Assembly (NCBI GenBank): GCA_964016885.1
Contig: OZ024754.1
Coordinates: forward strand, 7,378,001 to 7,442,000
Source of the DNA: Eledone cirrhosa
Lineage: Eukaryota
Length of the DNA: 64,000 bases
Direction: 5' to 3'
The position numbers and the translations under genes were made by a program. Of this stretch, positions 19,839 through 20,634 are shown one piece after another; position 1 is the first letter of the stretch; each line of letters opens with the position of its first letter. The notes beneath the pieces were generated by a model. It searched no databases. It worked only from the letters and a program-made list of their open reading frames with translations, and was not told where the DNA came from.

Positions 19839-20634
19839 TACCTATCTTCCGGCCTCTCTAGAGAATCGTAAAAGCACATATCGTTATATGCTTTTTCTAT
19901 GAAAATTAGTAGTGGGCAGACTAATTTGCATAGAGCGTGAGTACGTACCGGTTCAACGGAGACGATAAAAACAAATAACGAAACGAAATTAAATTTCGTT
20001 TCATTTGTAACTCACTTTCGTATGACTGACGCTTAAACAATTAAGTTAAAGATGTACATCCACATATGTATACTGAAATACTAGTATGCATATGAATACA
20101 CACACGTATACATATGTAGATGTACCGAGTTTTTCACTGGTCACTTTACTGTGAGTGTCCAGCTATTCTGTATGTAAACACACAGACAAACCGGTTTTTA
20201 GAGTCATACTGGTTTTTGCCTGGCTTTCTGGAGAATAGAGGAAAGGTGTTTCCTCAAAAACCAGTATGACTCTAAAAACCGGTTTGTCTGTGTGTTTACA
20301 TACAGAATAGCTGGACACTCACAGTAAAGTGACCAGTGAAAAACTCGGTACATCTACATATGTATACGTGTGTGTATTCATATGCATACTAGTATTTCAG
20401 TATACATATGTGGATGTACATCTTTAACTTAATTGTTTAAGCGTCAGTCATACGAAAGTGAGTTACAAATGAAACGAAATTTAATTTCGTTTCGTTATTT
20501 GTTTTTATCGTCTCCGTTGAACCGGTACGTACTCACGCTCTATGCAAATTAGTCTGCCCACTACTAATTTTCATAGAAAAAGCATATAACGATATGTGCT
20601 TTTACGATTCTCTAGAGAGGCCGGAAGATAGGTA

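Follow-up and report, generated by a model that had tools for sequence, protein, structure and literature searches.

The 466-bp repeat element at 19033-21366 of the Eledone cirrhosa window (the whole stretch of DNA that was analysed, 64 kb in length) is probably a non-autonomous Penelope-type retrozyme copy inserted in a (TA)n microsatellite, with a central junction produced where reverse transcription stopped, most likely prematurely, on structured RNA. The element consists of identical 466-bp hammerhead units in two head-to-head arms that overlap by TTG, behind which lies a 36-nt spacer. Its outer ends are two recurrent 3' ends of the family, and its flanks are of the same polarity on both sides. 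The preliminary description had taken the junction as a direct footprint of ribozyme cleavage in vivo; the observation behind it is right, and its fold-back reading is probably right in part.

Organization of the element and its hammerheads

The element is 2.3 kb long and lies inside a long (TA)n tract. Tandem Repeats Finder identifies two arrays of the 466-bp unit, 19033-20218 and 20216-21366, each of about 2.5 copies with 100% match, and exact comparison gives the left array as antisense and the right array as sense. The 466-bp periodicity starts from exactly 20216 in the right arm and holds up to 20218 in the left. The arms are nearly equal in length (left 1186 nt, right 1151 nt) and contain perfect inverted repeats, 19107-20218 and 20255-21366, in which 1112 bp are mirrored. 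Positions in the unit are counted from the first base after the predicted hammerhead cut (nt 1), and the features are listed below.

15388..19032, no strand: (TA)n/TATAAA target tract, left, containing a 200-N assembly gap at 16835-17034
19033..20218, minus strand: left arm, 2.5 units, from nt 49-52 at its inner (5') end to nt 302 at its outer (3') end
19033..19106, minus strand: one-sided tail of 74 nt on the outer left arm; its end corresponds to 20508
19312..19383, minus strand: second hammerhead of the left arm; first base after the cut 19334
19778..19849, minus strand: hammerhead of the left arm; first base after the cut 19800
20216..20218, no strand: TTG microhomology (nt 10-12) contained in both arms; pairing partner CAA, nt 49-51
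20216..21366, plus strand: right arm, 2.47 units, from nt 10-13 at its inner (5') end to nt 228 at its outer (3') end
20219..20254, plus strand: unpaired 36-nt spacer, sense, in the right arm; putative snap-back loop
20624..20695, plus strand: type I hammerhead motif with a predicted cut after GUU, between 20672 and 20673; palindromic ACUAGU in helix III
21090..21161, plus strand: second sense hammerhead; first base after the cut 21139, uncut in the DNA copy
21367..21549, no strand: (TA)n/TATAAA target tract, right, of the same polarity as the left side

The preliminary description had placed the start of the right arm at 20216, equivalent to 20682 and to nt 10 of a 3' cleavage product beginning at 20673. 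These coordinates are correct and become nt 10-13 when the overlap is considered. The 3-nt TTG reported to join the arms indeed belongs to both (20216-20218), and the unpaired spacer, given as about 35 nt, measures 36 nt (20219-20254).

Motif scans locate the core CTGATGA...GAAA at 20642 and 21108 on the plus strand and at 19831 and 19365 on the minus strand, and all four are complete type I hammerhead cores, two per arm, in consecutive tandem units. The pairing of helix I, whose 3' strand covers nt 1-15, places the first base after the predicted cut at 20673, behind the triplet GUU. Rfam HH9 matches 4/4 cores with E 1.1e-5 at 33.1 bits, short of its gathering score, which is 52; no Rfam match reaches its gathering score across the whole 64-kb window, and matches to miRNA families were rejected as hairpin noise. 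The unit has a GC content of 36.3% and, folded as a circular monomer, a predicted MFE of -155.1 kcal/mol with 67% of bases paired (z -11.9, 0/40 shuffles as stable). No stop-to-stop frame of at least 110 aa is found inside the element. An ORF combining RT and GIY-YIG is absent from it, and none was recognised by eye among the 70 frames of at least 110 aa in the window.

Non-LTR retrozymes are described as tandem non-coding units of 150-450 bp with a type I hammerhead (PMC7229834, Cervera and de la Pena 2020; 10.64898/2026.07.22.740005, Li et al. 2026). The element resembles them in its tandem non-coding units, each with a type I hammerhead, its GC of 36% and its strongly self-paired predicted circle, characters by which it is assigned, as a putative member, to the non-LTR retrozymes. 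It differs from them in its monomer, which at 466 bp lies 16 bp above the quoted range, and in its head-to-head inverted arrays and tails, which are not among the retrozyme features described there.

The insertion target is a (TA)n microsatellite, and the tract hides any target duplication. On the plus strand of the flanks, runs of AAA number 83 against 1 of TTT on the left and 8 against 0 on the right; being AAA-rich on both sides, the flank is not mirrored, unlike that of a fold-back read. This bears on the possibility of an artefact, from the assembly or from fold-back of a long read, in a region that is gapped and rich in repeats; in favour of it are arms of 100% identity and their proximity to a 3.6-kb TA tract that contains an N gap. 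The junction itself is absent from the sequencing runs that were examined, although their listing could not show single-locus joints. An artefact of this kind is nevertheless very unlikely, as a fold-back read would mirror the flank and equalise the outer ends, neither of which holds, and at least eight other head-to-head copies, from three other families, occur in the same window.

Family members in public runs and in the window

Part of the 466-bp unit is present in 20 of 24 public runs (16 studies), and 4/24 runs were examined in detail; one of these, X21, gave 0 reads in a sample of about 1 in 100 and carries no weight. In run X1 (1148 contigs), which may be related to the source of the window, 12 contigs of the family pass into (TA)n at 20508, and 4 do so at 20439. 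The first position is exactly the outer end of the left arm and the second lies 5 nt from the outer end of the right arm (20434); the two different outer ends of the element are recurrent 3' ends of the family. In contrast to these piled-up 3' ends, the 5' loose ends among those listed are represented by one contig each, at nt -61, +2 (X1) and +53 (X4). Read-end pile-ups in run X24 were rejected as element ends, since 6/6 of those listed fall on AATT sites and are digest artefacts; the X24 read starts at 20765 and 20767 are likewise fixed library starts and not element ends, and this run samples few loci. Exact-pattern scans gave 0 matches in metagenome contigs and 0 in viral contigs.

The window differs from X1 at three almost fixed positions (20454, 20470 and 20685), where X4, from another study, agrees with X1. 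All units of the locus are identical, and at these positions and their equivalents they share three letters unlike those in nearly all X1 depth and in X4, as expected if a single monomer, or a single homogeneous source array, had been copied repeatedly. The identity of the units also speaks for an inverted duplication at the DNA level, in which a broken tandem array would have been hairpin-capped at TTG/CAA and then copied, with no RNA step at the junction; inverted duplications formed through small hairpins at broken ends have been described (10.1101/2024.12.14.628481). Such an origin is very unlikely in view of flanks that are not mirrored and outer ends that match two different recurrent family 3' ends.

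Several other repeat families are found in the window. A second, AT-rich family (37293-37690, 21940-22190, 32973-33115, 33700-34010 and 35150-35282) forms head-to-head inversions and has two 3' ends about 90 nt apart. By motif scan it possesses an invariant hammerhead-like core, CUGANGA...GAAA, with a variable N and a long helix II region, and it has no Rfam hammerhead match. A third head-to-head family in (TA)n (21550-21917 and 58658-58990) has a tail of about 40-45 nt and junction loops of 30 nt and 1 nt; its longer copy starts within a CTGATGA-like string lacking a complete hammerhead. In the fourth family (31069-31270, 41160-41362, 25841-25905 and 25978-26038), 4/4 copies end 5' within a few bases of one site. 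This family contains two near-perfect hairpins (loops 6-7 nt) and has two 3' ends about 77 nt apart, and motif scans found no hammerhead in it. Further CTGA-N-GA strings occur in dispersed repeats at 22430-22465 (minus strand), 29790, 30950, 44340, 35899 (minus strand) and 62891 (plus strand), none of which passed the helix I filter. A dispersed repeat of about 190 bp (identity 80-93%, distribution SINE-like) is also abundant, at 8580-8764 and about 20 other places (e.g. 13579, 48321-48505, 51998 and 60277-60457), and there are minisatellites at 45783-46666 (110-bp unit) and 11047-11967 (22-bp unit).

Formation of the junction

The arrangement is probably explained by the action in trans of a Penelope-like RT/GIY-YIG protein, which would have nicked both strands, with two cDNAs primed at two internal start sites, at about nt 228-233 and at nt 302. 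The template RNA would have been uncut at its internal ribozymes, as a multimer or a ligated circle. After 2.5 units, the cDNA from the nearer site would have come to a halt at nt 10-13, within the helix I 3' strand. Annealing of its terminal CAA to the TTG 36 nt back would have allowed extension into a long hairpin, to which the second cDNA, the presumed source of the 74-nt tail, would have been joined. The stop itself was most likely an ordinary premature stop on structured RNA, by chance or by stalling at a folded uncut ribozyme, rather than run-off at a cleaved 5' end.

Pairing of a terminal CAA of the cDNA, at nt 10-12, with its own TTG at nt 49-51 would give exactly the junction of the window, with the spacer in the right arm, and fold-back on this pair accounts for the near-equal arms. 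Retrotransposon cDNA ends have been described to snap back, and with one protein they do so especially when synthesis has gone to full length (PMC11371274). On these three grounds the DNA fold-back proposed earlier is retained, but not as a complete account: fold-back alone cannot give the extra 74 nt of the left arm, which call for a second cDNA whose priming took place at the distal site, from the other strand. Near-equal arms would also be expected from two cDNAs ending at one RNA 5' end, which counts against a premature stop.

In 5/5 asymmetric head-to-head copies with readable spacer orientation, as judged by eye (this copy, 21550-21917, 37293-37690, 21940-22190 and 32973-33115; 33700-34010 was unassigned and three symmetric copies were excluded), the tail belongs to whichever arm is the shorter one at the junction. 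This placement suggests that, of the two cDNAs, the one begun at the nearer site extends furthest and folds back, and by it the copies in the same window support the requirement for a second cDNA. When folded as DNA, a cDNA that ends at either nt 1 or nt 10 gives no stable hairpin at the last bases, so that structure does not single out the TTG/CAA pairing. A comparable 3-nt microhomology 20-49 nt downstream exists at 212 of the 466 unit positions, and a 3-nt overlap is unremarkable.

Many of these characters are described for Penelope-like elements, which have an inverted 5'-truncated copy at the 5' end, a tail on one side and a bias to (TA)n (PMC8557442). A Penelope protein cuts and extends both strands and starts reverse transcription at two internal sites, the distance between which corresponds to the tail (PMC11167929). 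An inverted pLTR 37 bp shorter than its neighbour, with an overlap of 15 bp, has been reported, and head-to-head palindromes are common (PMC3846280). The present element is similar to endonuclease-positive Penelope-like elements in its adjacent head-to-head inverted 5'-truncated copy, tail at one end, (TA)n target and two putative RT start sites, and its asymmetry is nearly that of the pLTR (spacer of 36 nt against 37 bp). It is dissimilar in having no ORF, a tail of 74 nt and not 30-40, and a repeat unit that is the whole element. Arkhipova et al. 2013 attribute such palindromes to self-priming on an antisense template and not to cDNA snap-back (PMC3846280). For min-HHRs, dimer dependence is described, and pairs on opposite strands 100-700 bp apart are reported, that is, ribozymes kept on both arms (PMC4209133). 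In L1 twin priming, both nicked strands prime cDNA and give an inverted 5' part (10.1101/2024.12.14.628481). Priming from both strands would be common to L1 and the element, and the window copy 21940-22190 has such a non-mirrored form, whereas the 1112-bp mirrored arms need snap-back copying or a shared template end.

The junction and the predicted cleavage site

According to the preliminary description, reverse transcription had reached a ribozyme-made 5' end. The template 5' end would then have been produced by hammerhead cleavage, RT would have run off at nt 1, and 9-12 nt would have been lost as an unpaired flap when TTG and CAA annealed, a course of events that seems rather unlikely. It draws some support from the location of the junction within 13 nt of the cut, since the probability of a uniformly distributed breakpoint is 0.028 for nt 1-13 and 0.043 for nt 1-20, values that apply to one junction chosen after the fact. 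The junction is at nt 10-13 and not at nt 1, and the genomic 5' junction, 9-12 nt off, does not coincide with the cut. A 9-nt flap is required even though a cDNA that had reached nt 1 could have used instead the 5-nt microhomologies at nt 4 and nt 6, with flaps of 3-5 nt, or a 4-nt one at nt 8. The arms contain four intact cut sites that were read through, indicating a template that was largely uncut or circular. The breakpoint also falls in the helix I 3' strand (nt 1-15), and stalling on an uncut ribozyme therefore predicts the same place.

An independent contig of X1 argues for cleavage. Its loose end at 20674 mirrors 20680-20691 (10/12 letters against the window unit, p ~2e-4 per register), and the contig is a perfect palindrome from nt 2, centred on a self-complementary hexamer at nt 2-7 after the cut. 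This is what run-off at the cut predicts, and it keeps the idea of cleavage alive; 2/2 inversion junctions seen for the 466-bp family are within 13 nt of the cut, a point against a premature stop. The contig extends 15 letters past its centre, which would be the length expected of a perfect palindrome in a 31-mer graph. It is one contig of unstated depth and may be a library fold-back at one of the 16 six-base palindromes of the unit; the family is deep enough for library chimeras to assemble. The step in X1 summed depth near the cut (262,918 at 20665-20680 and 506,628 at 20681-20696) was rejected as evidence, as depth rebounds upstream (438,521-555,331 at 20553-20600) and is no copy number.

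In a wider count of 5' ends, those in nt 1-20 make up 1/3 of the independent ends among those listed for the 466-bp family and 1/4 in the second family, and the chance of at least these proportions is 0.12 and 0.40, respectively. The long-arm 5' ends of the second family lie at about -98, -110, -118 and +16 relative to the predicted cut. The one at about +16 favours cleavage, while 3/4 of the inversion ends lie 98-118 nt upstream and leave the motif intact. Families A and D, with fixed 5' ends and no hammerhead by motif scans, were excluded from this count. No 5' position has more than one contig among those listed, and no strand-changing joint is found among those listed in the runs at the 1% setting, below which single-locus joints would fall. 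GUC variants (T20672C) exist in the family, at 35,724 of 216,778 X1 depth and in 188 of 529 X24 minus-mate reads, which is in favour of cleavage; the GUU triplet and two-pair helix III presumably make for a slow ribozyme in this family, which is against it.

Published systems provide precedents on both sides. In R2, the cut of an HDV ribozyme governs the type of 5' junction (PMC3774820). [quoted passage not shown] They are unlike in that the R2 cut lies at or upstream of the only 5' end and has been assayed; the element has a ribozyme, predicted from sequence, within each unit, and four of its sites were read through. Penelope RT in vitro uses mainly uncut RNA, its product was the same with hammerhead mutants, and RNA-seq showed no reads terminating at the cut (PMC11167929). 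A literature search of titles and abstract starts found no inversion-breakpoint map against a hammerhead cut.

One post-hoc junction and one contig, confounded by a helix I stall, do not establish a direct footprint of cleavage in vivo, and such a footprint appears improbable. It is similarly doubtful that inversion junctions of hammerhead retrozyme/Penelope-type copies record the template 5' end and cluster at the cut in the 466-bp family. A pile-up just 3' of the cut, the pattern by which cleavage was to be recognised, separates it from stalling only at single-nucleotide resolution. If 5' ends were to peak at nt 1-3, the templates would have been cleaved; if they were to peak at nt 8-17, RT would have stalled on the folded ribozyme; without any peak, neither would apply.

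As a single locus the element is ordinary, a further example of a retrozyme/Penelope-type insertion of a kind already described. A retrozyme array bearing the inverted-plus-tail signature of Penelope insertion supports the mobilisation of retrozymes by Penelope proteins. The role of the hammerhead in Penelope-like elements is stated to be unclear (PMC8557442), and in vitro it is dispensable (PMC11167929). This role could be tested by computation alone in a family such as this one, which is young and abundant, starts at fixed 3' positions and has inversion junctions that can be read. If the cleavage reading were true, the genome would hold a countable record of cleaved RNA reverse-transcribed in the germ line, and this would answer whether Penelope hammerheads act in retrotransposition.
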